Shown here in pieces: positions 11,654-43,713 of a DNA stretch of 64,000 nucleotides; within the stretch, counting starts at the first letter, position 1; each line of letters starts with the position of its first letter. Made by a program: the position numbers and the translations under genes. Source of the DNA: Pseudogymnoascus verrucosus. Lineage: Eukaryota. The stretch lies in NCBI GenBank assembly GCA_001662655.1, contig KV460280.1, one strand, 5' to 3'. Below the pieces are notes generated by a model. It searched no databases, was not told where the DNA came from, and saw nothing but the letters and a program-made list of their open reading frames with translations.

Positions 11654-11771
11654 GGTGAGTTCCATTTCAGGAATCCGATGTCTCCTAACGCCTAACGAAA
11701 TTGACTGGAGAGAACTTACTTATACCATTCTCCAGGTATGGCAGCAAAACTCACAATCCTGTAAGGCTGAC

Positions 11772-14615: not shown

Positions 14616-16440
14616 ATGCCTACGAAGTCTACGTATGTGATACCGAAATGACCTATCTTCACAGGTGAAAGAGCATGCTAACAAGATTGGAGAACAACAG
14701 ATTTGAAGATGTTAACATTCCCTTGGTGGACGTCTGGACGTTCTTGTTTGAGAAACCAAGAGACTTTCCCCAAGATAAGGGTGAGTTCCAACTTGACACA
14801 TTCCTGAGTTTTGCTGACGTACAGTCATCTACACTGACCCGGTGGTTCCAAGATCGTATAGCTATAGCGACGTGAAGACCGCCACGGCTGGCTTTGGAAA
14901 AGGTTTAAAGGAAGCATGGAACTGGAACAAAAACGATGTTCTTCTGCTATACACACCAAATAGTATCGACATTCCCATTATTACGTGGGGTACTCACTGG
15001 GCTGGCGGAGTTGTCTCACCTGCCAATCCAAATTACACGACAAACGAACTGGCCATTCAGTTAAGAGACTGTGGAGCGAAAGCCATAGTTACTCAGCGGG
15101 CATATTTAAAGAATGCACGTGCTGCGGCTCAGATTGCTGGCATTCAAGAAGATCATATTATTCTCATCGGTGAGAAAAATGATAGCAATTCGGTAATCAG
15201 ACACGTCACCGACATATGCGAGTTGGGGGTGTCCCAGGGTTCCTACCATCAACGAACTATACCAGAAAACCCGGAAGCAGACCTTGCATTTCTTGTGTAT
15301 AGTAGTGGGACAACAGGCCACCCAAAAGGTGTTATGTTATCCCATGTGAACATTGTTTCAAATATCTTGATGTTGAAGGCTGGAGAGGGAGTGAATCTCA
15401 GCTGGGTTGGCGGTCATGATAATAAGGGCGACCGGATTCTCGGCTTCCTGCCTTTCTATCATATCTACGGTAAGTGTTGATATTAGATCCATGGTTTCAA
15501 GGCTAAACTGTTATAAGGACTCACTTCGCTCGTTCATCAGGCAATCTACAACGGCTTGGAACTGATTGTCATGACCAAATATGATCTGGAAAAGTTTTGT
15601 TCCAATATCCAGGAATATAAGATCACCTTGGCCTACGTTGTCCCACCCGTCCTCCTCCAGCTTGCAAAGGATCCCAGTATCGATCGTTTTAACCTGAGTT
15701 CTTTGCGGATGATGAGCTCTGGTGCAGCTCCATTAACAAAAGAGCTAGTTGAGGCGGTTTACCAGAGGCTCAACGTTCCGATTAAGCAAGGCTACGGGCT
15801 CTCCGAGACATCTCCAACCACCCACTCACAGCCTTGGGACACCTGGCGCACGTTTGTTGGCTCCGCTGGTATACTTCTCGCCAATCAAAGCATTAAATAC
15901 ATGTCGGAGGATGGGGATGAGCTGCCAGCTGGCGAGACAGGAGAGCTTTGGATTAAAGGTCCAAATGTTTTTAGAGGCTATCTAAACAACCTAGAAGCTA
16001 CGCAAAACGCCTTGACAAGTGATGGCTACTTCAAAACTGGCGACGTGGGGCATGAGGACAAGCATGGAAACTTATTCATTACAGACCGCGTCAAAGAACT
16101 AATTAAGTATAAAGGTTTTCAAGTTCCACCAGCAGAGCTCGAAGGAAAATTGCTCGGCCACCCGGAGATTGAAGATGCTGCGGTCGTTGGCGTTTACAGA
16201 CCCGAACAAGCTACAGAGGTACCAATGGCGTATATTGTGCTATCAAAGGGTAGTCTCGGTGATGCAGCAAAAGAAAGACAAATCATGGAATGGCTAAGTG
16301 CGAGAGTGGCGAACCATAAGCGTCTGAGAGGTGGCATTGAATGGATCGATGAAGTGCCGAAAAGCTCCAGCGGGAAGATTCTGAGAAGAGTTTTGAGAGT
16401 TCGCGCCCAGAAGAAGAAGCTACCATCAGCAAAGTTGTGA
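14616..16440 (+). CDS. 4-coumarate/phenylacetate-CoA ligase-like adenylate-forming enzyme, PTS1 (-AKL)
   Basis: YSSGTTGHPKG, QGYGLSET, FKTGD, DRVKELIKYKGFQVPPAELE, PKSSSGKILRR. Ends SAKL*. Confidence 0.93.
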
Positions 16441-16688
16441 AACTTCCTTATAGAAAGCAATAGCAAAATGGGACTTGGCTATGCATATCTATGCTAAGCA
16501 TGTATCTATATATATCCTCAGCATGCTGTTCAGATGCCTACTTGTAGATATATGTATCTGTGCCAAACACCGATTTTTAGAATTCATTGCTATTAGCTTA
16601 CTAAAGTGCATAAATACATAGCTTGGAGGCTTTTGGAGCCGTTAATAGGTAAAATATTTCCCCGTCTATGCTCTGAGGTTCGTCGCGT

Positions 16689-18376
16689 CTACTTAACTAA
16701 TTCTTCTTGTAAATATTCAATGAAATCGACGTACTCTCTGTCTACATCGGATCCAGAACTAGACTGAGTTTTGATATCTATAACCTCGTCGAAGTCTGGC
16801 GTGGAAATATCCGTAATAGATTCAGGTGTTGATGTTGTAGTGGTAGTTGGATGTTCTCGTCGCGGGAACTGCCATTCATCGAGTGAAGAACAGAAAATAG
16901 GTTGCGATACCATTGTGAGTCGTGTGTCCCTTGACGAAAAGCTCGACGCAGGATGGTCGTTACTATGCCAGCAAAGCAGAAGCCTCTCTACGCATAGTAC
17001 GGCATCGGTCCTCATTCTGACAGCGCTAATGGTCTCGGGGTTTAATACGTTTTCATCCAGGTCAAAGTCCTCTAGGCTTAGCAGGTCAATGCGACAGTCA
17101 TCTATATTGATTATGAAACTTCTGCAAGAGTCGCCACTCAACCCTAAAGCCAAGATGCGGTCTCGGAGGAAGGCTGTCCACCAAATCCTGCGGCGAAGAT
17201 GTTTCTTTCGCAATGGTAGGCTTGATGAGGAGACATCGCAATTTAGTCCTAGACTCTTTGAGAATGATGTGGCGAGACTTAACCAGTGCCGTGCTTCGGT
17301 AGTAGAGGAGCAGAGGGTCATAAGAAGCAGCGATTGGATCACAGATAGTCGGTCGTCGCAGGTGTTGAAAGAATAGAGAAGCTGCCAGGCTTGTTAGAAA
17401 GACAGTCCATAATAAAAATGAAACGTAGCCTACAGGGTTTTTACTTACTGATACTCGGTTGAAGAATATTTTCTGGGCGGAGGAGCGACTTTGAAATCCC
17501 GCTTCCGTCAAAGCTTTTGTGCTCAAATAACCAAGTCCAGCATACAAAACTGCCTGGAACAACAAGAAGCTGATCTGTTTCTTGCCCGAATTTTCGAACG
17601 CAAAACTATCAATTCTCTGTTCGTCCAGCTTGTCGTCCATATATTTCACCATCAACAATAATTCTTCCAAGTCAAGTACAGGCATCTGGTTGTAGACGAA
17701 GTCGGCGTATGCTTTCAGCAGCTCTAGTTGCATGGCTGTACTTGGCAACGTAAAAGCATCATGCGAATGCAAGTATGACAGATCGGAGGAACGTAGGTTA
17801 CACGGAAAGGCAGTAAAAAATCTAGGCAAGGGAGGACTTGAGTAACTTGCATCAGATGCAAAACCCGTCCCTATGGAAAAGTCTGGCTGAATCGAAGAAG
17901 GTGAGGAAAGCTCTTCAATCAAGCCTGTCTGTATTTCGCCATTGCCGCTAACCTTTTCTATATCTTCAATATCTGTAGTTTCTTGCTCTCCTACTGTAGA
18001 ATCAGGTGAACCTGCTTCGCTTTTTGGGGGCGCCGATCTATACGAGAGTCATCAACAGTGTTCATTATGCCATGTACTCAACGCTTCAATGAAGGTCTTC
18101 CTCTTACCTTCGACCTGACGTCTTTTTCTTAAGTTCAATGCATGCCATTCCAAAATGGCTACAATTCGCACAGGGTGCTCCGTGCGGTACAATATTGCAC
18201 CTGACTTTCCTCGCTCGGCAAGCCGTGCATGCCCTGGGTGCCCTCTTCCCTCGTTTATAAAGAGGTAGAGGCAGTGACGATAATCCGCTTCTTTCTCCGT
18301 GAGAGAGGGTGTCAATTAAAGGCGGGCCTTGGTAGAAGTCGGACGTATAGGCATATTCGTTGGTATTGGTGTCCAT
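16689..18376 (-). CDS. Zn2Cys6 transcription factor (CTF1-beta/FarB-like)
   Basis: RAPRACTACRARKVRCNIVPHGAPCANCSHFGMAC binuclear cluster, YLHSHDAFTLP, and RRRIWWTAFLRDR fungal TF domain. Confidence 0.88.
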
Positions 18377-19117
18377 TGTGCTCCTTATTGTTCTGAGTAT
18401 ATTACGATATGAGAGGATGGTAGATGATATTTTTTAAAAGTAGCACAACACCAAAATTTTACAATATGATATGAATAAACAGAAGAGAAAGGAAGATTGG
18501 TGTTTACAATAATACCCCGCGGTCTACCCCTCTAAAAAGCCGGATTACTACGGCAGTATGCGTGCCGGGATTCAAGACTGCTCGGATATTTCCACTGTGC
18601 TGCATGGAGAATATGAGAGTATACCTAGACAGTTAGTGTAAAATGCCAAATTATCACAGGAGCCTAGCTTGATCAGCGACTATAATTTTTGTGGATTTTA
18701 GCACCAGCACTCTTCGAGTGACATGCTTGTCTTAGTGTCATTCATAGCGCGGAATTCATGTTCCGTTGCCATAATCCAACGACGCCCCACAAGATTATAG
18801 CCGGTGTCCTGTGTTCAAATCTCCACTGTTGTTCCGATGGAAAACCACTACGATACCAAAGGGTTTTGCAAGTCTGTACTTTCTAGTGATTTATTACATC
18901 TACAAAAAAACGTAGCATAGAGTTGTATATGAATGCATAGATAAGTTTATCAGACTAGGTATTTTTGCCGCGCTTATGATAAACTGCACCAAATAAGATC
19001 CGTGCTTTAGTTGTGTTTCTGACATGTTCAACATGATGAAAACGATTAGGTTGAGATAGTACAGATTTGCGTCTACTGACTTAATTTATAGCACTATTCT
19101 GATATGTCTCCCACAAC

Positions 19118-19965
19118 TTATTTCCCAATAGAATCCACAACGGTTCCATCAAGCGTACGTTTGACATTAGGATCATTGTACGTCAGTGGCTCAATGACAT
19201 AGTAATTTTCGGGCGCAGCTTCTATAACTTGTCCTTGCATCTTCTCATCAAAGAGCATCAATTCCACGACCTTTACAATCTGTGACAACTCAATCCATTC
19301 ATTGTCAAAAGCATCCCATTCATTCTTCTCGAACAGGTTGGTCCTGACGTTTCCAGGACACAGAGTGTTAACCCTAATGCCATCATTATCATAGAAGTGG
19401 CGAGAGATAGCCCTAGCAAATCCGACGACCCCGTGTTTTGCAGCAGTATATATAGGGCAGAACCGAACAGGGTATATGCCCGCGATGCTAGAGTTCAAAA
19501 TGAGACAGGCTTGTTCTCCCTTAGGGTTCTTACGAAAGTAATGCTGTGCAAGGTAGGCGGAATTGATGACGGATTTAAGATCTATATCGATGATGAAATC
19601 CAGCTCGGTTGGTGGACCTGAGATCGCATCCGTTTTTGCATAGAAGTTCTTTCGCTCTCCGACGCCTGCATTTGCAAAGACGAAGTTCAGACTATTATAT
19701 TTCCTGAACACCTGATCAAACGTGTTTGACAGGGATGCGTAGTTGTTGACATCCGTTTTGAAGAAGGAGCCCGACAGTTCTGCTGCTACCTCCTCGCCCC
19801 TTTGCACGTTCAGATCGGCGATGTTGACCGTCCAGCCTTTCTTTGAAAGAGACGTTGCAACTGCAAGTCCCATTCCAGATGCTGCCAAGGCGTCAGTCAT
19901 GATTAGGTACTACAGTCTTTGATGAGCTGCTTACCTCCCCCAGTAATCAGTGCGACGCCAGCCAT
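19118..19965 (-). CDS. Short-chain dehydrogenase/reductase (15-hydroxyprostaglandin dehydrogenase-like)
   Basis: Spliced ALITGGASGMG, FANAG, NSSIAG, catalytic YTAAK, LCPG. Confidence 0.92.
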
Positions 19966-20187
19966 GTTAGGGTATTGTGGTACGAGGCGGAAATGAATGA
20001 GCAAAAACGGATGTATTCTATAGAATATTTAGAACTTCGAGCAACTAATTTGTATCTAATTTTGACATATTTCAAACATATATGTGATTTATATAAATTC
20101 TATAGAGTACATTTATGTATTGCGTTGCAGTTTACCATGACTTACCCCATGGGGAGCGAAGCTACGCGAGGGGGGCAAATGGCGAAC

Positions 20188-20199
20188 TGAGTCATGCCA
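20188..20199 (-). promoter_or_regulatory. TGGCATGACTCA, candidate bZIP site in the SDR/EthD divergent promoter
   Basis: Matches TGGCnTGACTCA, which recurs in five consecutive promoters. AP-1/Gcn4 core TGACTCA. Confidence 0.7.
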
Positions 20200-20561
20200 A
20201 CCATGACTAATATCGTACTCGTGGCAGGCCCCAAGTTTGTTGCTTCCATCAACTAAGAATCTCGAGCCCTAAATTGAGTTAGCCAGGCAGGTCCCTTTAG
20301 GACAAGTGCGTAGCTCCACAGTGTCAACTTTGGATTTTTAGTAAGAGAGTCTACGCGAGGGGAAGTAGATACCCAACGCATGCATAGTATACCAGCTACC
20401 AAATGTTATTGCCCCACAGTCTCAAATGAATGATGTTTATATAACAGACTCATTTGCGTACTCCGCTCTTCTACCCCAAATAAAAAGAACCTCTTCCAGC
20501 TTTAGACAATTAGTATTTTTCAACGCATCTCCAACTTCAGCTCCGCAATCAAGCCGCAAAT

Positions 20562-21135
20562 ATGCCTTGGCAGAAGATTGACCACCAGTTTGCCAATGTT
20601 AAGCTCAGCTATGACTCTGAGCCGAATTTCCAGCCATGCATCAAAGTATCCGTATTTTTCAAAAAGATTGATTCCATCGACTATGATGCCTTCTTCGGCC
20701 ATTGGCAGACAGTCCATGCTGATCTAGCCATTGCGACACAAGCATTCAAAAATCACATTGTTCGATATGCTCAAGTACGTGTCCCCCAATCCTCGTTATT
20801 TAGCTGTGCCTGGCTCTTTCCACAAAATAGCCTTAAAATTCCCAATTCTCCATGACATACTAACGTCTATACAGCATCACCAAACGCCAGAAATGAAAGC
20901 GCGAGCTGCAAGTCTTGGAGAAAATGTTCTTGAATATGATGGCTGTGCGCAACTATGGGTCCGCACATGGGACGATTGGCTCGCGTTTTACAACAGCAAA
21001 GAGTATGCCGCGGCGCTGAGTGCAGATTGTGACAGATTCATGGCCTTGCCTATGACCTATATGGTTGGTTATGAGAACCTAATTGTTGGCGATGCGTCAA
21101 AGATCATGGGTGGTAAAGATGGCTTTGTTAGGTAG
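20562..21135 (+). CDS. EthD-domain (dimeric alpha/beta barrel) protein, 2 exons
   Basis: FFKK..DAFFGHWQTVHADL..VRYAQ|HHQT..YDGCAQLWV..EYAAALSADCDRFM, a typical EthD pattern. Confidence 0.85.
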
Positions 21136-21609
21136 ATAAGTGAAAAGATGAATTAAAACTACTAGCATCATGTTAGATAGTCATTGAGACAAGACGAGAA
21201 TTGCAAATCATATACACTGTCAAGGGGAATTCTTAATGTGACCATATTGCGCAAAATTAGGATTACATAGAGGCACGCAACAATGGCATTCTACCGTATC
21301 TGTGTGTAGATACCCAAATGAAGGATATATATACAACTTGTAGATTGTTAGAAGTACTTAGTATGTTTACTGTCAAAGATTGGACACACCTGCGGTTCAT
21401 TTATCATTGGCTTGATTTCAAAGAAATACGCAAGTTACAATTCTAAGAAGAGTGAGAGCAAAGAACCCATGAAAACGGCGGAGTTGAAGGTAATAGGTAG
21501 TATGGAATATTTTTCCTTCATAAAAAGCTAACATGCTTCAAATTACTTATGCCAAAACAGACAAAAAACCACTCTCGATCTCTTGTATATAATTTAGTCT
21601 TTCAAAACA

Positions 21610-23569
21610 CTATACTTTCTCAACCACTGTGACGGTCACCTTCTCCGTGAGATCATGGCTAGTGAGGTTCCCACTGGTAGGATCTCTGTTCTGACTGCCG
21701 ATTTTAGTAAAGATAAAGTCAATTTCTTCTAAAGTTTTGCCAGATGTCTACAAGAGGAAAGTTTGTTAGCAGGTTTTCAGAGTAAAATATATTATTAATA
21801 TTTTGACATACCTCGGGACATAAGAACCATACAAATGGAACGGCAGCAGCACATGATAAGGCCATCCAAAGCCAAATCTTCCAACCGACATTTTCAAGCG
21901 CAATACCGCCAGCAAATACGGTGATAAAAGAGAAGAGCCATTCCCCAAATGCACCAGCTGCAGCACCAGCATGGCGTAGTTTAAGTGGTGCAATCTAATA
22001 TGTAATGTTAGCATAGTATCTCTAAAAGACTCAGGTAAAATAAAAGCCTCACTTCAGGACCATAAAGCCAGCAAACACCAATCCAGCCATATCCAAAGAC
22101 GATATTGTAGACAAATATCGCAGCAACAGCTATCCACTGTGTACTAGCTGAGGGATTAGGCAGACTAATCATGGCCACAAAGATAGACATGCAGATGGTG
22201 AGCACAATGGCGGAATATAACATGACGTTTCTCCTCCCAACTTTCTCAATAGTGTAGACGAGAGGTATAGTCCCAGCAGCAAACAGGGTGTTCATAATTG
22301 CTGCTAATAGCTTCGTAAGAAAAGGTGATAAGCCGACTTGTGCAAAAATCACAGTACTATAGTACACAGACAGATTGATGCCTAGAGGGTCACGATTAGC
22401 AATTAATTCTTACTATAATGCTTATGAGGATGCGCTTACCCATCATCTGCTGGAGCGCAAGAATCATAAAAGAGATACGAATGCGTCGACCAGCACGAAG
22501 ATAGCTTCGGTCCCAGATCAAGTCGAGAATATTAAAGTCGCTATTATTATCCTCTTCTAACTTGATGCTAGAAATGATATCTTGCTTTGTGCTTTGGACA
22601 GCTGGGTCGTCTATGTCAGCATCGAAAAGACGACAAAGCACATCATCCCCTTTACTAATATATCCCTTGGCGTAATACCATCGAGGAGTGTCGGGCAGGA
22701 TGAACATGCCAACACTACCGATGATAGCAAAAATGATCTGAAATCCAATTGGTAGTCTCTATAATCCAAGTTAGTAATCAATGTTTACTTTACCTAGAGA
22801 GGTCCGCTTTACCCACGAGGCTTGATTGGTCATACTAGTAAAACCAAAATCAACCCAATATGCAAGTGCTGCACCCGCAACGAGGAAAACGCAGGTCACA
22901 GCGACTTGTGGCCCGCGCTCTTTAATCTCAGTGCTCATTTCGGCCTGATACGTCGGAACTGAACAAGAGATGAACTAATGACGAGAGTCAATATCGTGTT
23001 CTGTAGAGTGAGAAGAATATGAACGATCATACCCCAATGCCAAAGCCCTGAAATTCAATTAGCAAGCTTCATAGTAATACAGCACGCAAAACAACTTACG
23101 CATATTATGCGTGCAACAATGATCTGAGCAACTGACCACGATGACGCTTGAAGGCTAGCTCCGATAATGACGAGTAGGTTGCCCAGGAGGATACAGTTGC
23201 GGCGACCAAGGGGCATACCAACCATAGTAACCATCAAGGAGCAGACAGCAGCAGCAAGTGTGTAAGAAGATGCAATCATGGGAATGACATATGTCCCAGT
23301 TGGATACTAGAAATAAGCATTAGCAGACCAACGCAATGCTTTTAGAGTAAGCACCTACTCCCATTGCTCTATGAAATGGCTCAGTAGTCTGAACCCCTCC
23401 AAGGACACCTGCGTCGTAGCCATACATGCAGAAAGACTATAAGCAATTAGTGGCTAGATTCTCCCTCTTATGGGCAATTTGAAGATGCTTGCGCGAGGAG
23501 ACTTACAGTAGCACAGCAAGTTGCCATTATTCTTTTGAGGGTTTTACCTCTAATTTTTGATTCGAACAT
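21610..23569 (-). CDS. MFS sugar-porter family transporter, multi-exon
   Basis: GYDAGV, LGRRN, PDTPRW, ALQQMMGIN, VGRRN, WLYGPE, PETSGKTLEEID. Confidence 0.9.
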
Positions 23570-23831
23570 GATAGCAAAAAGGGGATAAATTCCAGGTGTT
23601 GTGCAAAACGAAGTTCTCACTCGTACAAATTTATGGAGGTGTCATTAAGAGCCTTTTTATATAGCAATAAGAAGTCTAGTACTGTTTCTTTTAATTTTAG
23701 CTTCTCATACCCCAGGTTTCCCCACGATGTTGTGAAGTTAGTGCAGTAGTTTAGAAACCCAGGATGTCGGCTACCGAATTTAAGCATCTGCAATGGCAAC
23801 TAATTTCAGGTATAGGCAACTGCGTCTATCA

Positions 23832-23843
23832 TGAGTCAGGCCA
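23832..23843 (-). promoter_or_regulatory. TGGCCTGACTCA, candidate bZIP site between the two sugar porters
   Basis: Matches TGGCnTGACTCA. Confidence 0.65.
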
Positions 23844-24303
23844 TACATAGTGGCGTCTCTAGATCTTGGCTGACCTTAGCACTATACTTTGTGTGGAGGC
23901 TAGCAAGTAAGTACCCCAGATTTTAGAATGTGGGGCATTCTCACGTCGGAATTACAGTCCCGAGCTGTCACTTGGCACAGCAAATATTTTCCATTAGTGT
24001 AGACATGACTAATGGCTAATTAGTAACGTCTAACCCCATTATATCCTAGAGTAAACTAGGTTACGATTAGCCCTACTGTTAAATTAGACCATAGCGTCAG
24101 TGCTCAAATGCCTAGCTATCGAATTTCGAGCTTGGCCGTCGCCATAAATAGCGTTTAGTAGTAGTGGAGATTAGTTGTGTGGGGTAATTTGTGACACTTA
24201 TAATGTTTTGGCTCCTTAGTTTAAAGAGCGGCTAAACATTACAATATCCCGCTTCTCACAACATTCTCGTTGCTTTTTTATTGTTAAGCATAAACAGAAA
24301 CCG

Positions 24304-26124
24304 ATGCATTTTCATTTACGCGGACGGCCTTTGGTGGTTGCAATTACCATTTCTTCAGGGAGTTGCTATCTGCTCTTTGGCTATGATCAGGGCGTTCTTG
24401 GTGGGCTAGTAACGCAGCCTAGCTTTTTGAATGCTATTGGCAATCCTAATGAAGGATATTTAGGCGCCATTGTGGCCCTGTATAACATTGGTTGTTTAGT
24501 AGGATGTGTCCTTTCTGCCTTGTATGGTAGTCGCTTTGGACGAAAAAGATCCATTATAGGGGGAAGTCTCATCATGGTCGTTGGTGCCATTTTGCAAGCG
24601 TCCACTTATGGCGCTGTTCAGCTCATCATTGGAAGGATAATTTCAGGTGTTGGTAATGGTACTGTTAGAATTCTTCCTCGCGCTGTTGTTGGTACATTTC
24701 TGATCTCGTTTAGGGATCAATACCTCTACTATCCCAATATATGTTTCAGAGATGGCAAAGAGTAACCGACGAGGAAGAATGATAGCAATACAGCTGTCGG
24801 TGGTTATTGTAGGTTGCAAAGTATCTGAGTACTTATTTTTGCTTATACTTGTCTAGTTTGGGACTGTGGTAGCTTATTGGCTTGACTATGGAACAGTCAA
24901 ACACATGACTGGAGAGGCAAGATCTCCCATTATTCTCCAGTTACTAAGAAGAGTTCTAACTTAAGCGGCGACAGATCGTATGGCGACTTCCCATTGCATT
25001 TCAGATTGTCTTTGCGCTCATCACATTGGCTACTATGCCATTTTTGCCCGAGACTCCAAGGTGGCTTTATAGCCAGGGCAAAGAAGCTGAGGCAATTCAA
25101 GTCCTTGCGAGATTAATGTCTTGTAGAGAAGACGATCCAAGAGTGCGAATGATCAAGGGTGAAATGAAGGCAGCCCTGGAAATCGAAACGATAGAAGAGC
25201 CTTTCCGGTGGCAGAACATTTTCTACGACCGTACAGATTTAAAGAACTACCGGCGGCTCGTTCTCTGTTTCTTGATTCAAATGATGCAACAATTCACTGG
25301 CATTAATGTCATTGCATTCTATGGTGCGTATATTTTTCCTTTTAAAGGAGCTCTCTTTAACTGTGCAAAGTGACAATCGTTCTCGAGGTTAATGTTGGCT
25401 TTGATCGTGAAACAGCCAGTCTTGTTGCCGGTTTTATCCAGATCGCTTTCTGGGCTGGTACATTCCCTCCTATGTGGTTGATTGATAGATATGGGCGACG
25501 ACCTATGTTACTCTGTGGTTCAATCGCTCTTACCACGACAATGGTAGTCTTTACCATAAGCATTGCTCTAGACACTCCAGCCACTAGCAAGCTTGCACTT
25601 GCCATGCTCCTATGCTATGAAATCTCGTTTGGGATGAGTTGGAACTCGATTCCATGGTTGCTTGCGCCCGAAATCACACCACTGCATTTGCGGCATATTG
25701 GTAGTGCTATTGGACCTTTCTCGGAGTGGATGTGGACATTTGTGAGTCTTCTGCGAGCTCAGTCTGACATCTTGCTAACTACCAAAGGTCATAGTGCTGA
25801 TTACACCCACTGCGATCCGCAACGCGGGGTGGAAGTTCTACATTCTCTTTTGTATTATGAACATGCTTTGCATCCCATTTATCTGGATCTGTCTACCTGA
25901 GGTATAGAGCCTCCAATATCTTTAATTAGGCCGTTGCTAATGCGATGTTATAGACAAATGGCAAGACTTTAGAGGAGATAGACTACGTATTCGCAAATGC
26001 TGAAGCTAAGGAGCGGATCAAATCACGTTTCGATGACGTTGTCGCAAATGCAAATAAGGGTGGTAGTAGGAGAAGTTCAGATTCTAACAAGATGACTACA
26101 CTTGAGGTCGAGAAGATAGTTTGA
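24304..26124 (+). CDS. MFS sugar-porter family transporter, multi-exon with one GC-AG intron
   Basis: FGYDQGV, FGRKR, GRIISG, PETPRW, QQFTGIN, YGRR, PETNGKTLEEID. Confidence 0.92.
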
Positions 26125-26614
26125 TTGTATCTACGGGCCTGCCATCATCGCCCTGGCTAGCTTGTCAACTCAAACAAGACTGTGTACTTCCTGTTTTCTC
26201 TGCTATATAATAGCATAGATTCAACACGTATGTCTAGTGTTATACATTTTTTTTGGTATAGATAGGCAACGAAAATATGAGAACTAAAATATTAAGGCAA
26301 AAAGTTTAATACAACAGTATCTAACTCCTCGAGTAATGCAGTTTAGTTTGCTATGAAGGTGTGCTTGGCTGAAGTTGGGCACTTAGTGACTGTGCTTCAG
26401 CAATCTGCTGACCGATTCGATCTCACTTATGACGTAATGGCTGCTGTCCAAGGAGATTTAAATCTGATCCGTATATCTTGACTAGTAAAGGGAGACTTCT
26501 TAAGAGGATTTGTTGCTGTGGAGAAAGCTGGCGTACCAATCGGTCATGCCATGGCTTGTTTATCTCCGCACCATTGTAATGGTGTGGGGCGTGACATCTG
26601 CGCCAATTGTGCCC

Positions 26615-26626
26615 TGAGTCAAGCCA
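26615..26626 (-). promoter_or_regulatory. TGGCTTGACTCA, candidate bZIP site upstream of the second ADH
   Basis: Matches TGGCnTGACTCA. 14/15 identical to ATGGCATGACTCAGG. Confidence 0.68.
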
Positions 26627-26942
26627 TAATTACATCGACTTGAAGCTTTAGAGTAAAATAAGATTGGCTAAGTTTTTATGGTATTACGGTAAAGCTGGTG
26701 GTAATATGTACGGAACCCTTGTTAACACTTACCTGACTCAAATTTATTTGATTGACATATTTCTATCCCGCCCTTCTTTCTTTAACTCTCCATATGAGCC
26801 ATAGGCCCCGAAATCTACTTTCTCTTAGGCTTTATTTATACCTGACACTTTCTTGTTGTTTCATATAGTTTAATTTCTTTAACACCATAAAGTTGAAGCA
26901 CCACAAAAAGTTGAACGATTGCCCCGATAGACCAAATCCAAA

Positions 26943-28373
26943 ATGCCTCACGAAGTTGGACATAACGGCATCATGAGGGCGGCTCAGTTCAACACTGTAA
27001 GAGCCATATTTTAGAGTTCTAGCGAAAAGAATATATATACTAATAACCATGTTTTGGGCACAACAGGTCACAAAGAAAATCACCGTTAATAGGATCCCAA
27101 TCCCATCATGCAAGCCCCATGAAATTCTGATCAAAAACAAATGTGCATCACTGTGCCATTCAGATCTGGTGAGTTGATTCACTTCCATAGAACAAAGCGA
27201 TGGGGCTTACTTAAGTCTAATTATAGATGCTCTTTTGGGATAGCACTGCTGAGCCTGCGACAACCGAAGATGTCACGATTGGCCACGAGAATACTGGCGT
27301 CGTAGTGGAAGTGGGCAGCAAGACAACGGGCTTCAGCGTCGGGGACAAAGTTGGTTGCCTTGGCTGCAGCTACGCGTGTTGTAGGTGACTCTATGTATAA
27401 GTGCACACGATAGTTACTCGAACTGACGACTGCTATAGACAAATGTGAAGCATGCAAGATCCACAATCTATTGTGTCAAGAGGGAACTGGTCTTATGCAC
27501 GGCTTCAGCACTGCTGGCCATTTTGCGGACTACTCGGTCTCGGATTACCGAAATGCCATGGTCCTGCCTGATGGTATTGATATGGTTTCTGCCGCACCAC
27601 TCTTCTGCGCTGGTGTTACAGGTGATAACTACCCGAAAATATAGTTTACCACGTTTAGGACTGATTAGGTGGATAGCATACCATGCAGTCGACCAGTGTG
27701 ACCTAGAGAAGGGCCAGTGGGTTGCAGTGATCGGATGTGGAGGCCTTGGGCATCTTGGTATGTTTTCTCCACGAGTGCTTTCTAGCAAGACCACAAAAAC
27801 TGATACTCATCCGTGACAGGTATTCAGTATGCGAAGGCAATGGGCTATAGAGTGGTTGCTATTGATATCTCTGATGCTCAACTATCAAACGCACGATCTC
27901 TAGGCGCTGATCTTATTTACAACTCAATGGTTGATAGTACATACCTGGAGAAAATCAAGGAGAAGACCCAAGGAGGCTGTCACGCTGCCATCGTTTTTAG
28001 TGCTGCTTTAGCAGCATATGAGCAAGCCCCAAAATGTTTACGGTAAGCCTCCCTCTAGAGTCCAGTCCACTATACGACAATTTCTCTCGGTATCTAATGC
28101 TTCTTCTGCAGCGTCAACGGCCTCATGATGATTGTAGGCATCCCACCCAAAAACCTGTCAATTAGCGCTTTAGATATCCTCCTTGGAAGATACAGGATCA
28201 AAGGCGCGAGCAGCGGAACACCAGATAGGATGAGCGCAGCAATTTATTTCAGCCACGATAACAAAATAAACCCACATATGACGACTTTCAAAGATTTGGA
28301 CGATATCCACGAGATCGTCGATTTGATGTCGAAAGGTCAAAATGCGGGACGCTTCGCAATAGTCTGGGAATAA
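26943..28373 (+). CDS. Zn-dependent alcohol dehydrogenase (Adh1/AdhP-like), multi-exon
   Basis: Spliced LCHSD, GHENTG, CYKCEAC..C, APLFCAGVT, GCGGLG, QYAKAMG. Confidence 0.9.
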
Positions 28374-28657
28374 GTCGTCGAATTTACAGCGTGGGAATAG
28401 TTCGGTGGCTACATGGCGTATATTTGGGATGGGACCGACGCCACGCCGCGTATAGATGTAGATGCAGATACTCAAAATAAATCTACCAGACCCGTTCTTC
28501 TAGACCCATTATTCCACGCTCGCGATGCTCCTAGTAGATGAGTCCAGTAGGAGTAGGGCGCTGAGAACAAGTAAGGCTGTACATCTGTAGTTCCTGCGAT
28601 AAGTAATTGAATTTGGCCCACAGAATCCCGTGAGTGGATGCAGTCTTGGCAGAGTTA

Positions 28658-28669
28658 TGGCATGACTCA
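28658..28669 (+). promoter_or_regulatory. TGGCATGACTCA, candidate bZIP site upstream of the second SDR
   Basis: The 15-mer ATGGCATGACTCAGG is identical to the copy at 30343. Confidence 0.7.
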
Positions 28670-28838
28670 GGTCCTCCAAACCCTCGAAACCCTCGACTGC
28701 AAATACTTAGCTTCTTAACTTACGGAGCCAACGGCATTGCTAATCCCGCCCCAGAGCACATAAACTCTAGCAGGGACTGTTTGACATCTGTTTTGGCAAG
28801 AAACAATTATCGAGGGAGATGCTATTATCGAAGTAGAC

Positions 28839-29909
28839 ATGGCTCAACGTTCCTCGTCTCGTGTCTGGCTTGTGACGGGCTGCTCGTCAGGCTTTGGGAG
28901 TCTTTTGGTTCCAGCCATAATCGCGCGTGGAGATAGAGTAATTGCTACCGCCCGGAGACCCTCTGCCTTGGCAGAACTTGACCTTCACAAGAACCTAACT
29001 ACGATGGAGCTGGATATTACATCGCCGCAACCTGTACTCGACAATATTGTGCGTAGTATCATTAGCAAGTTCGGACAAATCGACGTGCTGGTCAACAATG
29101 CGGGGTATGTTGCGCCAGGAGTCTGGGAAGAGATATCGTAAGTTCCTTCGCTGATTGATTTAACGTGCCAGTTACTGTGTCGTTGAATCAAGCGCATCCT
29201 ATCAGTTTTCCATGGAATAATAAGGTCACAGCTAACCGTTGAGGCTTGAACAGCCACGAAGAAACTACCGCACAGTTTAACACAAACGTTTTCGGGGCGC
29301 TGAATCTCACTCGAGCTGTGCTACCTACGATGCGAGAGCAAAAATCGGGCACTCTTGTGTTTATGAGCAGTATTGCGGCATGGCACGGCGTAGGCGCGGG
29401 GGGGCCGTATTCCAGCTCCAAATTTGCGTTAGAAGGTGCGTAAACTCTTCCTTCGCTGACAACATAATTATTACTAACTCGTAACTATAGGTGCCGTGGA
29501 GTGTTTAGAAAAGGAGACCGTCCATCTCGGCATCGAGACATTTCTGATGGTTCTTGGGCAGTTCAGAACTGACATATTGAATGCCGCACGGAAGCAAAAT
29601 AAAAAAGACAATCCAATAGAAGACTATGAGCGAATTTCAGAAGAACTGAGACACCGCCATCAGGAGACAAGTGGTAAGCAGCCGGGCGACCCAGAGCTGG
29701 CTGTCGAGCGGATACTAGACGTTGTCAGGCGCGAAGGCCCGCTAAAGAATTTCCCGAGATTGCCATTGCGCATTCCTCTTGGTTCGGATGCAGTTCAGGT
29801 GATGCAAGCAAAGTGTGAAGAGACATTAGGCATCCTTAAGTCGCTAGGAGACATAGCAAGGAGTACTGATTACCCAGATGCTGATGACATACCTACCTAC
29901 TTAAGATAA
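28839..29909 (+). CDS. Short-chain dehydrogenase/reductase (17beta-HSD-like), 3 exons
   Basis: [19 protein letters not shown], catalytic YSSSK, QPGDP. Confidence 0.92.
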
Positions 29910-30343
29910 TATACTTTTTAAGCAAGGAGATCCGTCGTTTGTAGCTTAATTTTCTAGAAGGGCAAAGCGGTTGCTTTTTTACATGTAACAAACCTAAGCG
30001 CCTTGAGAATTACTAGATAAAAAAATACAGAGCATGATCTCATTTGACTTTAGTGTTCGAGTTGTCTGATACTACCACAACGAAACACCAAGTAGTTACT
30101 TTTGTGTGCTTGTGCGCGTGAAGAAATCCTTTTAGAACTTCCCTGGGCCTACCCGAAAGATCGTCAAACTAAACACCCTGGAACTACTTGCTTCCATGCA
30201 CGGGAATTGGATTAATAGTGCTGACAAATAGGTGAGCAGAGTAATCTTTGACGATGCTACATGTGCATAAAATGCAACAGGGGTTTATTTGACCACCTGC
30301 TCAATTAGAGTGATTTGCGCTTTAGCTAATAAGAGTAAGCAAA

Positions 30344-30355
30344 TGGCATGACTCA
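30344..30355 (+). promoter_or_regulatory. TGGCATGACTCA, candidate bZIP site upstream of ALDH
   Basis: The 15-mer is identical to the copy at 28657. Confidence 0.7.
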
Positions 30356-30493
30356 GGCTACTAAAGCTAGGAATTTTAGAAGCAAGTCTATGATTTAAAA
30401 GAACTAAATACTAGGCCATATGCTGTAGAATCTTAATTACAATAACCCATTTTAATCGTTCTTACTACATTTCAAATTAGTAAATTTGTTACG

Positions 30494-32268
30494 ATGCTAT
30501 TAACAGTGCCCCAAGACAAACAGAAAATTATCACCCAGTTGTTTATTAACAACGAATATGTTAACTGCCAAAATCCACAAAAGTAAGTTTTGATTAAAAT
30601 GACAGTTCTGATACACTGCTCACCTTTTTACAGAATATCGGTTTATAATCCCATCACTGAAGAGCTTGTCAGCGATCAGATTCCCGTGGCTGGAGAGCAT
30701 GATGTGGATGCTGCTGTCGCAGCGGGAAATGCTGCATTTGTAAAATGGCGGGCTTGGCGGGGGACGGCGCGACGACAACTGTTGCTGAAGTTTGCCGACC
30801 TGCTCGAACGCGATCAGGAAGAATTGGGCTTTCTGACCAGACTCACTCTCGGAGCCCCATACTTGGCATTTGGCCAAGGGGAGATACAAACTGCTGTTGA
30901 AAACTTCAGATGTAAGTCATGGCAGATCCGCTTGGAGAATGGCGTCGCTGACTGTAATTTACAAGACTTTGCTGGTTGGATTGATAAATTCGCTGGTGAA
31001 TCTTTCCCTCAAGATGATGGGTTCTACAAGGTTGTGCGCAATGAGCCGCTGGGAGTTGTGGCAGGGTGAGAATTGTTTGCCTCGGCTCCAAACAGCAGTG
31101 AACTAATTAGGGGCCTAGAATTATTCCCTGGAATGGTCCACTTGCGTCAGTTGGACTGAAAGCTGCACCAGCACTAGCCACTGGCAATGTTTTTATCCTG
31201 AAGCCTAGCGAGAAGACTCCGTTAATGGCAGCAGCCCTAGGAAAGTTAATCATCGAAGCAGGATTTCCACCTGGAGTGTTTCAAGTTCTCAGTGGTGATG
31301 GAAGTACAGGAGCACTTCTTGCCAGTCACATGAATGTGGCTAAAGTCAGCTTTACGGGAAGTGTCCAGACAGGCAAGACTGTTCAGATCCTGGCAGCACA
31401 AAGTAATCTGAAGAGAGTTACTCTAGAGCTGGGTGGGAAGAGTCCGGCTGTCATATTTGATGATGCTAACTTGGAAAATGCGACTGAATGGTGGGTACTT
31501 TGTCTTTGTTTTGGCTTCTTCAAGAGATTTTTCAAGAACCTTCGTAATTAGCTTCGATGGTCGTGGTCTAACACCCGAACAGGTGCGTCAACACCATGAC
31601 TGTCAACTCGGGACAAATCTGCTTTGCTCCGTCACGAGTTTACTGTCAGGCCGGAATTTATGACCGTTTTTTGGAGCTCTATGGAAAAAAATTTACTGCC
31701 AAGAAGATGGGTGATCCGGAGGACAAGGACACAAGCCTCGGTCCTGTGATCGACAAGGCTCAATATGATCGCATAGTATCCATGATTACCACAGCAGAAA
31801 GTGAAAAACAGGGCACACTGCTGCAAGGTGGTCGAGGCACCACAGGCAAGGTACATAACTTCAATGTGTCCTGTCATGACAGCGAGTGTTGCTAACAAGG
31901 ACAAGGGATTTTTCATCCAGCCTGCTATATTCGTGGACACGAAGGAAAATGCCACCATCTACAAAGATGAAATATTTGGACCAGTCGTGGTCATCAACCG
32001 CTTCGAAACAGAAGAAGAGGTTGTCGCCAAGTCGAACAACAGCAAATACGGATTAATGGCTGGTGTCTTTACTCAAGACATCAATCGGGCCCTCCGAGTG
32101 AGTTCTGCATTTGACTCAGGCGTCGTTGGCATAAACTGTATCAGCACCATTAACATCTCTTGCCCGTTTGGTGGAACCAAGGAGAGTGGAATAGGCCGCG
32201 AACAAGGCTCAGCTGCCCTGCGCTGTTACACTGAGCCTAAAACGGTTTTAATCAACTTGGCGTATTAA
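30494..32268 (+). CDS. NAD-dependent aldehyde dehydrogenase, multi-exon
   Basis: LFINNEY, IPWN, KPSEKTP, FTGS, LELGGKSP, GQIC (catalytic Cys), EIFGPV, PFGGTKESG. Confidence 0.94.
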
Positions 32269-32608
32269 AATAGATACCTCCAACTCATCACATAATGTCT
32301 GGGATATTTTAGATTCGTCTCATTTTTTCTGTATTAGCTTAGCATTATGGTAGCATTGGAAATAAGTTACTACCTTACATGTAACCTGCTCGTGCTAAAA
32401 TGGTTTGGCACGCCGCGCTAGAGTGTGTACAAATAGGCAGTTTGGGAGGTCTCCTCAAATCCCAATTGCCTCATTATGCAAGTTTGCTGCGACTTTCCAT
32501 CAGCATGTCCTTACGTACCCTGGAAATCCTAGATAGTGTTAGTGTCGTTAGTGCATGGGTTATGAAGGCGAGTGATGAAGGTTTCCTCTTTTTCTGTCTG
32601 TACATTGC

Positions 32609-32622
32609 CATTACTCATGCCT
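32609..32622 (-). promoter_or_regulatory. AGGCATGAGTAATG, Yap-type variant site upstream of the DUF1446 gene
   Basis: Identical 14-mer at 38102-38115. Contains the Yap1-type core TTACTCA. Confidence 0.62.
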
Positions 32623-33120: not shown

Positions 33121-35150
33121 ATGCCTGCTATAAATCGAGAAGTTCTTCGCATTGCCTCTGCTTCTGGTTCTGTGACGGACCGCAGAGGCGGATTTGCCGA
33201 TCTTGCCCGCCACGAAGATGTCGACTTCATTGTCGGCGATTGGATGTCCGAGTATAACATGACCACGCGAGGGGGCTCAAAAGTCAACAATAACTCCTTA
33301 AGCTCTGAATTCGAGGAGTGCTTTCTCGAATCCATCGAACCAGCCCTTGCTGCATTGGTTGCTAACAAGATCAAGGTTGCGGTCAATGCTGGAGCTAGTG
33401 ATACTGAGAAGCTATACCATGCGCTGTCAGAAATGGTCAAGAATAAAGGCTTGGATCTAAAGATTGCGTGGGTGGGTGGTGATGAAGTGATAGATGTTGT
33501 GCAGGAGGCCATAAAATCGGGAGAGTCATTTCGAAGCCTTACTACTGGTGAGTATTGTTCCTCACCGGATCGACAACGCGCGACTAATTTCTTCTACAAG
33601 GCAAGAATATTTCTGAATGGGGACACGAACCGATGTACGCTCAATGCTACTTAGGATGTTGGGGTATAGTAGAGGCTTTCAATGCAGGAGCCGATATCGT
33701 ACTGTGCGGCCGAGTTGCAGATGCTTCTCCAAGTATTGCCTGCGCTGCCTATACCTATAAGTGGCAGAGGGAGGACCTCAGCCAGCTTGCACATGTGTTT
33801 GTAGCAGGCCACTTCTTAGAGTGTTCAACCTACGTCACCGGAGGCAACTTTTCTGGGTTTAAGAGCCTGCCGGGCAAGTCATTAAGTCTCAGCTTCCCCA
33901 TACTCGAGATCGAGTCTGATGGAACCTTCATCGTTACTAAGCAGTCAGGTCGTGACGGCATGGTTACTATCGATACCTGCAAAGCACAGCTCTTATACGA
34001 AATACAAGGACCTTATTACTACAATTCAGACGTAGTTGCAGATCTAACGAACATAAAAATCGAATCTGTGGGTCAGGATAGAGTGTGAGTCGAGTACAAG
34101 CTCCAAAATATGAATATCTATGTCTAATACCTTGTATAGGAAGGTGAGCAACGTTGGCTTCACAAAGCCACCTCCGACGACCAAGGTTGGTATCACGGCG
34201 AAAGGGGGCTTTCAAGCCGAAGTGCATTACTTTGCCTGTGGACTTGATATCGAGGAGAAAGCAGCACTCCTTGAGCGACAGGTTCGAAGTACCTTGGATG
34301 TTTCCCGCTATCACACTCTTAAATTCCGCATAAACGGTTCATGCCCGTCTAATCCGTCGAACCAAGACGCCGCAACCGTCGACTTCAGGATTTTCGCGCA
34401 GGCGAAAGAAGAAAGCGCACTCTCAGTGTCAAACTTTCTCCGCCCCTGTACAGACGTGATCATGCAGAGCTATCCAGGGGCGACCTTTGCTGTCGACGCC
34501 CGTCAAGCTTTGCCAAAGCCATACTATGAATACTGGGTTGCCTTGCTTCCACAGAGTAGCGTGAAGCATGAGGTGCATCTCCCCTTCACCGAAAAGACGA
34601 TCGCGGTAGCGCCACCCACCGACACCGCAGAGTTTCTATACGCGCAACCGACGTATGAAACGCCGAACCCGGTAGCTATGGGCTCGTGGGGACCAACTAC
34701 TGTTGCACCGATAGGCTACGTCGTGCACGCAAGGTCGGGTGACAAAGGTTCAGATGCTAATGTGGGCTTCTTCGTTCGGAACACCGACGAGTGGGACTGG
34801 TTACGTTCGATACTCACCATCCAACAAGTGCAGAAGATGTTGGACGACGACTTCGAAGGAAGTCCCATTATGCGGTTTGAGCTTCCTAACATTCAAGGTT
34901 CGTGGTGCTGCCTCACCCAAACTCCTAGCCATGACTGACTTTGGTCATTCTTAATTACGTATGTCTTTTATACGAACGGTCCTGCTAACTCTTGTATGCT
35001 GTAGCCGTGCATTTCCTACTCAAGGACCACTTGGACCGCGGAGTGTCCTCGAGCTCCACATACGACGTGCTAGGCAAGAACGTGGCAGAGTATTTGCGCT
35101 GCAAGCATGTCGAGATCCCGAATAAATTCTTAGAGAGAGGGCGTATTTGA
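33121..35150 (+). CDS. DUF1446 / acyclic terpene utilisation AtuA-family protein
   Basis: LRIASASGSVTDR, GDWMSE, CGRVADAS, GHFLECSTYVTGGNF, AQLLYEIQGP, ARSGDKGSDANVG. Ends GRI*. Confidence 0.9.
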
Positions 35151-38101: not shown

Positions 38102-38115
38102 AGGCATGAGTAATG
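38102..38115 (+). promoter_or_regulatory. AGGCATGAGTAATG, Yap-type variant site upstream of OYE
   Basis: Identical to 32609-32622 on the reverse strand. A second CATGAGTAATG lies near 38366. Confidence 0.62.
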
Positions 38116-38534
38116 ACATTCCACCGTGCCGCCATCCACAGTGCGGGGTAGGCTAGGATTAAATCGGGCAGTAGCCGGCCAGTGACGTATGTGTAAAAGA
38201 TAAGCTTTTAAGAGTGCTCAGCTTTCAATGAGAGACGGTGTACAAATATTAGCCCCTAACGAAATGTCAGGGGAAACGGCTCGGTTGATAATCGTCGTGA
38301 CCAACTTTTCGCTTCGCGAGCCGGTCAGGACGATTATCCTTTGCTTACAAATTCAATCCACACGCCATGAGTAATGATAAAAGAAAAGAATTAGGGTAGT
38401 TGATAATGATTATTAATGAACATTGAAGTAATCTCAAGCCCCCTTCGATAAAGAGATGTCGACGAGTACGAGCACTTACCTTCTTTAAAAAGGACGTCCT
38501 GGCAAAAGGGTTATCGACATTCCACATCGCCGCC

Positions 38535-39635
38535 ATGTCACCACCACTCTCCTCGCCCATGCGAATCGGCAATTCGGAGCTGAAGCACCGTGTTGTCATG
38601 GCACCCTTGACCCGATACCGTGCCGATGAGAACCACGTCCCTCTGGAAATGGTCGTGGAGTACTACGCACAACGGGCTTCAGTTCCTGGAACTTTAATCA
38701 TCACCGAAGCCACATTCATAGCACCAGAAGCGGGCGGCTTCTCCTGTGCGCCAGGTATATATAACGATGCTCAAGTGCAGGCGTGGCAGAAGGTCACACA
38801 AGCCGTCCATGCACAGGGCAGCTTTATCTATTGTCAGCTTTGGGCTCTTGGTCGCGCAGCAAAGGCTGATATTCTCAACGCCGAAGGATACAAGGTTGTG
38901 TCTAGCAGCAACATCGCGATGGCCAAGGACGCAGCAGTTCCCGAGCCACTAGACGAGGACAGCATCCAGGCTTTTATTGGCTACTACGCCAGCGCTGCCA
39001 GACGGGCCATCGAAGCTGGCTTCGACGGCGTTGAAATCCACGGCGCTAATGGGTACCTGGTCGACCAATTCTTGCAGGACAAGTGTAACAACCGCACTGA
39101 TGGGTGGGGCGGCAGCATCGAAAAGCGCGCGCGCTTCGGCATCGAAGTAGCTGCTGCGGTGTCCGCAGCCATAGGATCGCAACGAGTGGGCTACAGAGTA
39201 AGCCCCTATAGCCCCTTTCAGGGCATGAAGATGGACGACCCAGTGCCGCAATTCTCGTATCTGGCTACGGCGCTAAAGAAACTCGACATTGCTTACCTGC
39301 ATGTTGTGGAATCGCGCATCTCAGGCGCGGGCGACATCGAGGGTACCGAACAGGTGGACTGGCTGATTGACCTCTGGGGAAGCGGCAATGCCATCATCCT
39401 CGCGGGTGGCTTCACCTCGGAGTCAGCAAATGAGGCCATTAGCAAACACATTGACAAGAAGATCGCGATTGCCTTTGGTCGCAATTTCCTCGCCAACCCT
39501 GATCTGCCGTTTCGGATTGCGGAGAAGCTGAAGCTGAATAGCTACAACCGGGCCACGTTCTACGTAGAGCAGTCCCCTATAGGATATACCGACTACCCTT
39601 TTAGTCCGGAGTTCAAGAGTGCCGGTGCGGCATAG
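38535..39635 (+). CDS. Old yellow enzyme (NADH:flavin oxidoreductase / ene-reductase), intronless
   Basis: MAPLTRYRA, YYAQRA, QLWALGR, EIHGANGYL, FGRNFLANPDL, GYTDYP. Confidence 0.95.
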   Translation: MSPPLSSPMRIGNSELKHRVVMAPLTRYRADENHVPLEMVVEYYAQRASVPGTLIITEATFIAPEAGGFSCAPGIYNDAQVQAWQKVTQAVHAQGSFIYCQLWALGRAAKADILNAEGYKVVSSSNIAMAKDAAVPEPLDEDSIQAFIGYYASAARRAIEAGFDGVEIHGANGYLVDQFLQDKCNNRTDGWGGSIEKRARFGIEVAAAVSAAIGSQRVGYRVSPYSPFQGMKMDDPVPQFSYLATALKKLDIAYLHVVESRISGAGDIEGTEQVDWLIDLWGSGNAIILAGGFTSESANEAISKHIDKKIAIAFGRNFLANPDLPFRIAEKLKLNSYNRATFYVEQSPIGYTDYPFSPEFKSAGAA

Positions 39636-43436: not shown

Positions 43437-43713
43437 AGCTTCGAAAGGCTAGGATACACCAACGATTGTCAGAATACATCATTATTGGCTTCACTCAACT
43501 ATTATGAATGAACATAAATTGTCGTATTATCTATGCATGCCAGTTCCGAATTTTGCACTCCGACAAGTGTGCTGTTAGACACCAAGCAGTCTGTTACGAG
43601 GCATTTTAGCCAAGGTACCCCACGCTTCAGTGTACAACATGGGGTACAAGTAGTTCCTGTGTTCCTACTTAGTGCCAAGCTTTGAAAGGGGTAGCGGTGC
43701 TTCGAGGCACGGG

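Follow-up and report, generated by a model that had tools for sequence, protein, structure and literature searches.

XanC and Yap8 already exemplify the concept of a cluster basic leucine zipper (bZIP) regulator that has an extended AP-1 site. XanC is encoded within the xan cluster of Aspergillus fumigatus and is associated with the word AGTCAGCA (in reverse, TGCTGACT), mutation of which lowers expression (PMC8406171). Yap8 (Arr1) of Saccharomyces cerevisiae, a protein of arsenic sensing, has a 13-bp site, TGATTAATAATCA (PMC7261193, PMC3865217), and A7370 of Curvularia lunata, a bZIP-DUF3425 activator, binds ACGGCTGAC in an electrophoretic mobility shift assay with a Kd of 10.6 uM (PMC13113314). 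Among the factors with shorter sites, CpcA has the site (CPRE) TGA(C/G)TCA (PMC3199737), with a consensus also given as TGACTC (PMC10817288), and the cores listed for Yap1 are TTACTAA, TGACTAA, TGAGTAA and TGACAAA (PMC7261193). Here we analyse a stretch of 64,000 nucleotides from Pseudogymnoascus verrucosus (contig KV460280.1 of assembly GCA_001662655.1; hereafter the window), in which an extended AP-1 word, TGGCnTGACTCA, is present in five copies, each 142-469 bp 5' of start codons, and which encodes a bZIP-DUF3425 transcription factor that is a candidate reader of these sites. The window is fungal, its proteins matching Pseudogymnoascus records at 98-100%. No description of the cluster or of the motif was found in the literature searched, a search that most subscription papers and the motif databases lay outside.

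Results

A scan of the window with the pattern TGGCNTGACTCA returned exactly five matches, at 20188, 23832 and 26615 on the minus strand and at 28658 and 30344 on the plus strand, which are precisely the copies listed in the original prediction. All five are intergenic and lie upstream of seven genes whose names are backed by Pfam (Table 1), so that the coverage claimed for them also stands; the distance from site to start codon is 226 bp for the short-chain dehydrogenase gene SDR1, 371 bp for the EthD-domain gene, 266 and 469 bp for sugar porters 1 and 2, 325 bp for the zinc-binding alcohol dehydrogenase (ADH), 173 bp for a second short-chain dehydrogenase (SDR2) and 142 bp for the aldehyde dehydrogenase (ALDH). 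There are nine copies of TGACTCA in the window, five of which have the extended flank. None of 100 shuffled windows contained five matches to TGGCNTGACTCA (mean 0.04 per shuffle). Because the motif had been found post hoc, the control was widened to any pattern of eleven fixed bases: TGGCNTGACTCA is the sole such pattern reaching five separate places in the window, and a five-place pattern of any kind arose in 0 of 12 dinucleotide shuffles (gap 0-1) and in 2 of 60 order-3 Markov resamples (31 gap geometries). For five hits placed uniformly, a span of at most 10.2 kb has P=0.0028. The exact motif has no copy in the 726,576 bases of 80 other loci, which served as a stand-in for the genome background and are partly redundant, with fungal origin confirmed for only some of them. 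The element is real, and its rarity withstands the post hoc manner of its discovery. Among the longest repeats listed, which were 20 direct families out of at least 60 and 25 inverted pairs out of 75, no flanks common to the sites extend beyond 16-17 bp. The sites therefore do not seem to have been copied as parts of a larger repeat, and a transposon is disfavoured on the same ground. The sole one-mismatch copy of the 12-mer, TGGCTTCACTCA, is at 43486-43497, outside the cluster, and has a broken core.

The element is also larger than first described. The word with eleven fixed positions is half of a 17-bp, nearly mirror-symmetric pseudo-palindrome, TGGCMTGASTMAKGHCA, and the five exact sites alone give a 17-bp pseudo-palindrome as their consensus, TGGCMTGASTCAKGCCA. 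A G at the second position after TGACTCA (G+2) is present in four of the five exact sites and mirrors the C at the second position before the core (C-2); over ten half-sites the mirrored position is C in nine. The half-sites take the form TGGCMTGA or TGHCATTA around a central C/G. One base separates GGC from TGAC in every exact site, and the left half is nearly invariant, the right half variable.

The longer element extends to the promoters of two further genes, encoding an AtuA/DUF1446 protein and an old yellow enzyme (OYE), where the variants have a TGAGTAA core. A symmetrised matrix made from the five exact sites only gave its next ranks to 32614, 38110, 32072 (in the ALDH coding sequence) and 38371, and all nine of its hits scoring at least 10 fall in 19.9-38.6 kb; none was found in the remaining 45 kb of the window, and the rate in the other loci is 3.0 per 64 kb. 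TGASTMA cores number 11 in the 4,716 bases of the seven promoter regions, against 1.2 expected. C-2 and G+2 occur together in eight of these 11 cores as compared with 11 of 180 cores in the other loci, and in four of the six promoter cores outside the training set (Fisher 4e-4). Compared with 1000 resamples per promoter, the AtuA site has P=0.018 and the best OYE site P=0.009, and the promoters of the bZIP gene and of a Zn2Cys6 transcription factor gene beside SDR1 have no site (P=0.73 and 0.48). Since AtuA and OYE flank the bZIP gene, the likely regulon is one of nine genes with the regulator inside it, and it probably comprises SDR1, EthD, the two sugar porters, ADH, SDR2, ALDH, AtuA and OYE, rather than the first seven only. 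A regulon reaching the genes at 40-61 kb was rejected, as these genes lack a site scoring at least 10 with the symmetrised matrix.

Table 1. Positions in the window of the genes and of the exact and variant sites
Feature	Position	Strand	Proposed role or location	Basis or remark
SDR1, short-chain dehydrogenase	19118..19965	-	target	PF00106; homologues
EthD-domain protein	20562..21135	+	target	PF07110
Sugar porter 1	21610..23569	-	target	PF00083; ends read from sequence
Sugar porter 2	24304..26125	+	target	PF00083; end read from sequence
ADH, zinc-binding	26943..28373	+	target	PF08240, PF00107
SDR2, short-chain dehydrogenase	28839..29909	+	target	PF00106
ALDH	30494..32268	+	target	PF00171
AtuA/DUF1446 protein, citramalate-lyase-like fold	33121..35150	+	probable target	PF07287; exons; orthologue model
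bZIP-DUF3425 transcription factor, ~605 aa	35867..37847	+	candidate reader	PF11905 above, PF00170 below cut-off
OYE, NADH:flavin oxidoreductase	38535..39635	+	probable target	PF00724
Zn2Cys6 transcription factor beside SDR1	16689..18375	-	alternative or additional regulator	PF00172, PF04082
Exact site 1, TGGCATGACTCAGTTCG	20183..20199	-	SDR1/EthD divergent promoter	pattern scan, matrix scan
Exact site 2, TGGCCTGACTCATGATA	23827..23843	-	porter 1/porter 2 divergent promoter	pattern scan, matrix scan
Exact site 3, TGGCTTGACTCAGGGCA	26610..26626	-	ADH promoter	pattern scan, matrix scan
Exact site 4, TGGCATGACTCAGGTCC	28658..28674	+	SDR2 promoter	pattern scan, matrix scan; segment unalignable in X7, X10
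Exact site 5, TGGCATGACTCAGGCTA	30344..30360	+	ALDH promoter	pattern scan, matrix scan
Weak variant, TGACTAA core, C-2, no G+2	20199..20215	+	SDR1/EthD promoter	score 8.1
Variant, AGACATGACTAATGGCT	24001..24017	+	porter 1/porter 2 promoter	16.1 with eight-site matrix, only 6.6 with five-site matrix
Second TGACTCA core, C-2, no GGC flank	26729..26745	+	ADH promoter	doubtful member
Variant, AGGCATGAGTAATGGCA	32606..32622	-	507 bp upstream of AtuA	rank 6; P=0.018; repeat listing I19
Variant, AGGCATGAGTAATGACA	38102..38118	+	425 bp upstream of OYE	rank 7; P=0.009; repeat listing I19
Variant, CGCCATGAGTAATGATA	38363..38379	+	164 bp upstream of OYE	rank 9
Near-perfect palindromic variant, TGTCTTTACTCAAGACA	32064-32080		inside ALDH coding sequence, ~1050 bp upstream of AtuA	

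The candidate reader carries a C-terminal DUF3425 domain on its last exon (PF11905, 47.9 bits, cut-off 27.1). Its N-terminal bZIP domain scores below the Pfam cut-off (PF00170, E 6e-4, 20.3 bits, cut-off 27.6), and a profile of the family matches the solved bZIP structures 7aw7 (E 1e-6) and 1gd2, which is Pap1 (E 2.5e-4). The basic region, KRDNDREAQRAFR, reads DxxAQxxFR where the signature of the Pap1/Yap subfamily is NxxAQxxFR (PMC7261193). Asp occupies the normally invariant Asn position in 145 of 150 relatives, the remaining five not fitting the pattern, and a stretch RxRxVSxLT ahead of the basic region is conserved. The family comprises 442 representative clusters at E<=0.001; alignment scans of prokaryote and viral collections with the bZIP gave no matches. 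A model of the DUF3425 domain (orthologue P0331) has a pLDDT of 94 and found no Foldseek match at E<=0.001 (best VIA Z 3.6), so that the structural search with this model assigns the domain to no named fold and gives no evidence of a new fold. In one public gene model, P0321 (1156 aa), AtuA and the bZIP are joined, probably as an annotation artefact, because a stop is present at 35148 in the window and the two genes are separate in other records.

Orthologues of SDR1 and of the bZIP are seven to nine locus tags or accessions apart in seven of the nine named Leotiomycete genomes that show both, namely three of Pseudogymnoascus, one of Leptodophora, two of Leptodontidium and one of Halenospora (VE01_09323/09330, V499_05325/05318, VE00_09974/09966, ACEPPN_003190/003197, KAH6723469/462, KAH9214484/477 and KAH6682830/821). 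The three Pseudogymnoascus are close kin, and one of them is possibly the window's own assembly, so that these are about three independent lineages overall. AtuA adjoins the bZIP in two Pseudogymnoascus records (V499, VE00) and is ten tags from it in Coleophoma. In Aspergillus pseudoustus (62.5 kb) and, as a weak indication, in two Dactylonectria (>1 Mb), homologues of AtuA and remoter homologues of the bZIP are on equal-sized contigs. The locus has two features of a cluster bZIP of the XanC type, in that the regulator lies in the cluster and is linked to it across species, and a common word in the target promoters is rare elsewhere, as judged from the background of 80 loci.

An alignment of SDR1 was also used to scan metagenomes, with 80 of 158 confirmed stretches kept, and this recovered only paralogues, of at most 49% identity. 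Eight paralogous loci (L001, L037, L058, L015/L016, L010, L054, L028 and L040) have neighbouring distant homologues of SDR and ALDH and, in part, of ADH, EthD and AtuA. In 15 promoters drawn from L001, L058, L016, L010, L054, L028 and L040 the top common word is ACCCCGC, found in 11 of the 15 and in 6.6% of background tiles, which we take to be of the CreA/Mig1 type of carbon catabolite repression, and no TGGC-type motif is among the words that they have in common. The word TGACTCTGAGAAT is found shortly upstream of an SDR gene at L037:9604 and at L016:9837, in two distant fungi. Gene names read from translations of open reading frames place ALDH, ADH, EthD, SDR and AtuA in L001:1-18400, L037, L058 and L016 with a major facilitator superfamily (MFS) transporter and esterase- and lipase-like genes, and also with genes for an acyl-CoA dehydrogenase, a flavin monooxygenase, an AMP-binding ligase, a P450 and an NAD-dependent epimerase-like protein. 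By their gene content, these distant clusters look like a recurring family of modular catabolic clusters.

In the window itself, the nine-gene unit lies within a longer run of metabolic genes (12800-61000) that also contains an ADH, three AMP-binding ligases, an enoyl-CoA hydratase, a nitronate monooxygenase-like protein, an MFS transporter, a flavin monooxygenase and a second ALDH; to these the sequence adds a metallo-beta-lactamase-like gene and a further fungal transcription factor near 56700-59200. The outer genes of this run are without the element. SYGGRG is present in eight of nine window promoters. The GC content drops to 0.41-0.48 at 16000-32000, whereas the left end of the window has about 0.50-0.54, and the SDR1 protein is 85% identical to its homologue in the Halenospora cluster, from another order; horizontal transfer of the cluster is possible. 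At 8200-11700 a GH18 chitinase with chitin-binding modules adjoins a further cysteine-rich gene.

Discussion

We consider it probable that the sites are read by a homodimer of the candidate bZIP-DUF3425 factor encoded at 35867, which would switch on the nine-gene catabolic cluster. Each monomer would read one 8-bp half-site. The Gln and Phe that are kept from the Pap1/Yap signature may tolerate both TGA and TTA half-cores, and the Asp in place of the invariant Asn, together with the RxRxVSxLT stretch, may add the outer contacts to GGC, by analogy with Yap8 and its 13-bp site. DUF3425 may sense the inducer. That the cluster bZIP is the reader had been proposed from the first: its gene is real, is linked to the cluster across genera, encodes a non-canonical basic region and has weaker sites on both sides, and the case that these make is circumstantial.

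The described systems resemble this one in different respects. A7370 shares the domain architecture of the window bZIP and a TGAC half-site with a GC-rich 5' flank; it differs in that its gene is not part of the cluster under its influence, on which it acts by way of a cluster regulator, and its site is reported as a single 9-bp word rather than a palindrome repeated across promoters (PMC13113314). XanC is likewise encoded in its cluster and has an extended AP-1-like word in the promoters of its targets but not in its own; its cluster is biosynthetic, however, and its flank is TGC directly before TGAC, whereas the window sites have TGGC-N (PMC8406171). The term 'DUF' does not occur in the main text of the XanC paper (PMC8406171), so that XanC is at most a possible member of the family. 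A GC directly 5' of TGAC, as in the A7370 site or the XanC/Maf-type word, is found in none of the five exact sites. The basic region has a parallel in that of Yap8, which is Pap1-like with the invariant Asn replaced, by Leu in Yap8 and by Asp in the window bZIP, and which has a long pseudo-palindromic site, very few targets and an N-terminal tail that contributes to its specificity (PMC3865217, PMC7261193); it differs in its 13-bp site and in arsenic sensing. Yap8 is not known to carry DUF3425.

Several observations weigh against a dedicated reader and a nine-gene regulon. In the site of A7370, GGC directly precedes TGAC without a spacer base (PMC13113314). The AtuA and OYE promoters were put to the resampling test only once their variants were known, places outside the cluster at 5927 and 40879 rank above these variants with an unsymmetrised matrix, and three of the 13 cores in the rest of the window also combine C-2 with G+2. 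SDR1 and the bZIP are on different, short contigs in two of the nine genomes (V500 and V502), and Cadophora, Mollisia and Boeremia are among the SDR1-bearing genomes that gave no bZIP hit in a search that scored 8000 candidates. In favour of the cluster bZIP, the eight paralogous loci showed neither the exact motif nor a bZIP-DUF3425 gene, but in partial DNA (20.8 of 94 kb for L001, for example), which limits the absence of the bZIP, and of their 15 promoters one has a near-site (the AtuA promoter of L001, score 12.0), which is about the rate expected by chance, as 2.9% of 870 tiles reach 11.1. Reads of related genomes were aligned to 28590-30420 for 4 of 15 listed runs (X4, X7, X10 and X13), of which X10 and X13 have single contigs spanning SDR2 and the ALDH promoter and X4 covers only parts of the SDR2 gene. 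In X7 and X10, the only two runs that reach beyond it on either side, 150-152 letters that do not align stand in place of the 116-118 bp with site 28658. The ALDH promoter of X13 can be aligned only over a 113-bp block, which includes site 30344 and is 81% alike, no more than a weak hint of conservation; among the 40 of 273 difference rows listed none falls in a site, the substitutions around site 30344 being among the other 233 rows.

Of the alternatives, the one that survives best is that a global AP-1-type factor reads the cores, CpcA/Gcn4 on TGACTCA and NapA/Yap1 on TGASTAA, with the cluster bZIP as a bystander or a target and the GGC flank as a local preference of that factor or of a neighbouring partner. 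OYE, ALDH and SDR genes are typical targets of stress detoxification, which speaks for such a factor. All five exact sites contain the CPRE core TGA(C/G)TCA (PMC3199737), five of the 11 promoter cores, all of them variants and none an exact site, are listed Yap1 sites (PMC7261193), and a DUF1446 gene of A. nidulans, not necessarily an orthologue of the window AtuA, stands in a table of NapA-dependent genes (PMC5371717). Cores also occur without the GGC flank in TTGACTCG and TGAGTAAGG, which are conserved between L001 and L037 in the ALDH/ADH promoter, and these leave room for a general AP-1 factor. The original prediction of a self-contained regulon takes no account of the Zn2Cys6 gene that adjoins SDR1, and the cores are also valid sites for CpcA (TGACTCA) or Yap1 (TGACTAA, TGAGTAA). 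Nevertheless, we regard control by a global factor as unlikely. Amino-acid biosynthesis genes are absent from the nine. Gcn4 prefers a purine before the core and a pyrimidine after it, and such flanks are found in none of the five exact sites. A longer CpcA consensus was not found in the literature searched. The Gcn4/CpcA and Yap1/NapA elements share the 7-bp cores TGA(C/G)TCA and TGACTAA/TGAGTAA with the window sites, but their cited definitions include neither GGC nor C-2/G+2, and the factors have genome-wide regulons and the canonical Asn. Moreover, the C-2/G+2 extension is present in so few of the cores of the other loci, and the exact motif in none of their bases, and a global factor does not explain the linkage of the bZIP across genera.

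Still less likely, in our view, is composite or heterodimeric control, in which the cluster bZIP would act with another bZIP or with the Zn2Cys6 factor (16689-18375) and only the TGGCnTGA half would be its own. This would explain why each site has one stronger half, as seen in the nearly invariant left halves of the exact sites, and a Zn2Cys6 gene not only borders SDR1 but is found, with no bZIP-DUF3425 gene in the DNA available, in the paralogous clusters L058 and L016. The stronger half, however, was selected by motif discovery, four of the five right halves keep G+2, and CGG-type spaced triplets are not uniform among the promoters, with none in those of ADH and ALDH. Finally, it is highly improbable that the reader is a bZIP-DUF3425 paralogue encoded elsewhere in the genome, or that the pattern is partly chance, lineage-specific and without function: the family is large (442 representatives), with the Asp family-wide and not special to the window copy, one site lies in the segment replaced in two related genomes and a five-fold pattern arose in 2 of 60 resamples, but tight clustering (P=0.003), strictly upstream positions and the extra sites beside the bZIP gene argue otherwise.

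The gene content of the cluster (porters, SDRs, ADH, ALDH, EthD, OYE and AtuA) suggests uptake and stepwise oxidation of a sugar-like, polyol or glycoside substrate. The cluster would import such a substrate, the nature of which is only loosely inferred, and the SDR, ADH and ALDH enzymes would oxidise it stepwise to a branched hydroxy acid that the citramalate-lyase-like AtuA enzyme would cleave. Because a model of the AtuA orthologue P0333 matches citramalate lyase (PDB 9evf_A; E 1.3e-22, 485 columns, template-modelling score 0.72 by target), the pathway probably ends with the cleavage of a C-C bond in a branched hydroxy acid. In this model the fold is alike, at 16% identity; a search of the PDB with the AtuA sequence gave no match. 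We found nothing in the literature searched that links DUF1446 with EthD or citramalate lyase with AtuA.

Lastly, bZIP-DUF3425 proteins are numerous in filamentous fungi and little studied, as had been supposed when the motif was put forward as a candidate for a poorly characterised family, although it is not the first such motif, being preceded by the A7370 site (PMC13113314). A wider view, which we find doubtful, is that the proteins of this large fungal family sense inducers and are dedicated to the regulation of individual clusters, that the change from Asn to Asp rewrites the bZIP recognition code towards long, GC-flanked pseudo-palindromes, and that DUF3425 binds a pathway metabolite; the locus would then supply a natural motif with several sites, the first for the family, and reveal an undescribed, widespread catabolic pathway with a citramalate-lyase-like end. 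The natural set of 8-11 sites, together with a basic region that lacks the Asn, makes possible a direct test of DNA recognition by the family. The element further delimits a conserved catabolic unit of nine genes within a 50-kb metabolic run, and this narrows the search for the substrate of the cluster and for the function of AtuA and EthD proteins in fungi.

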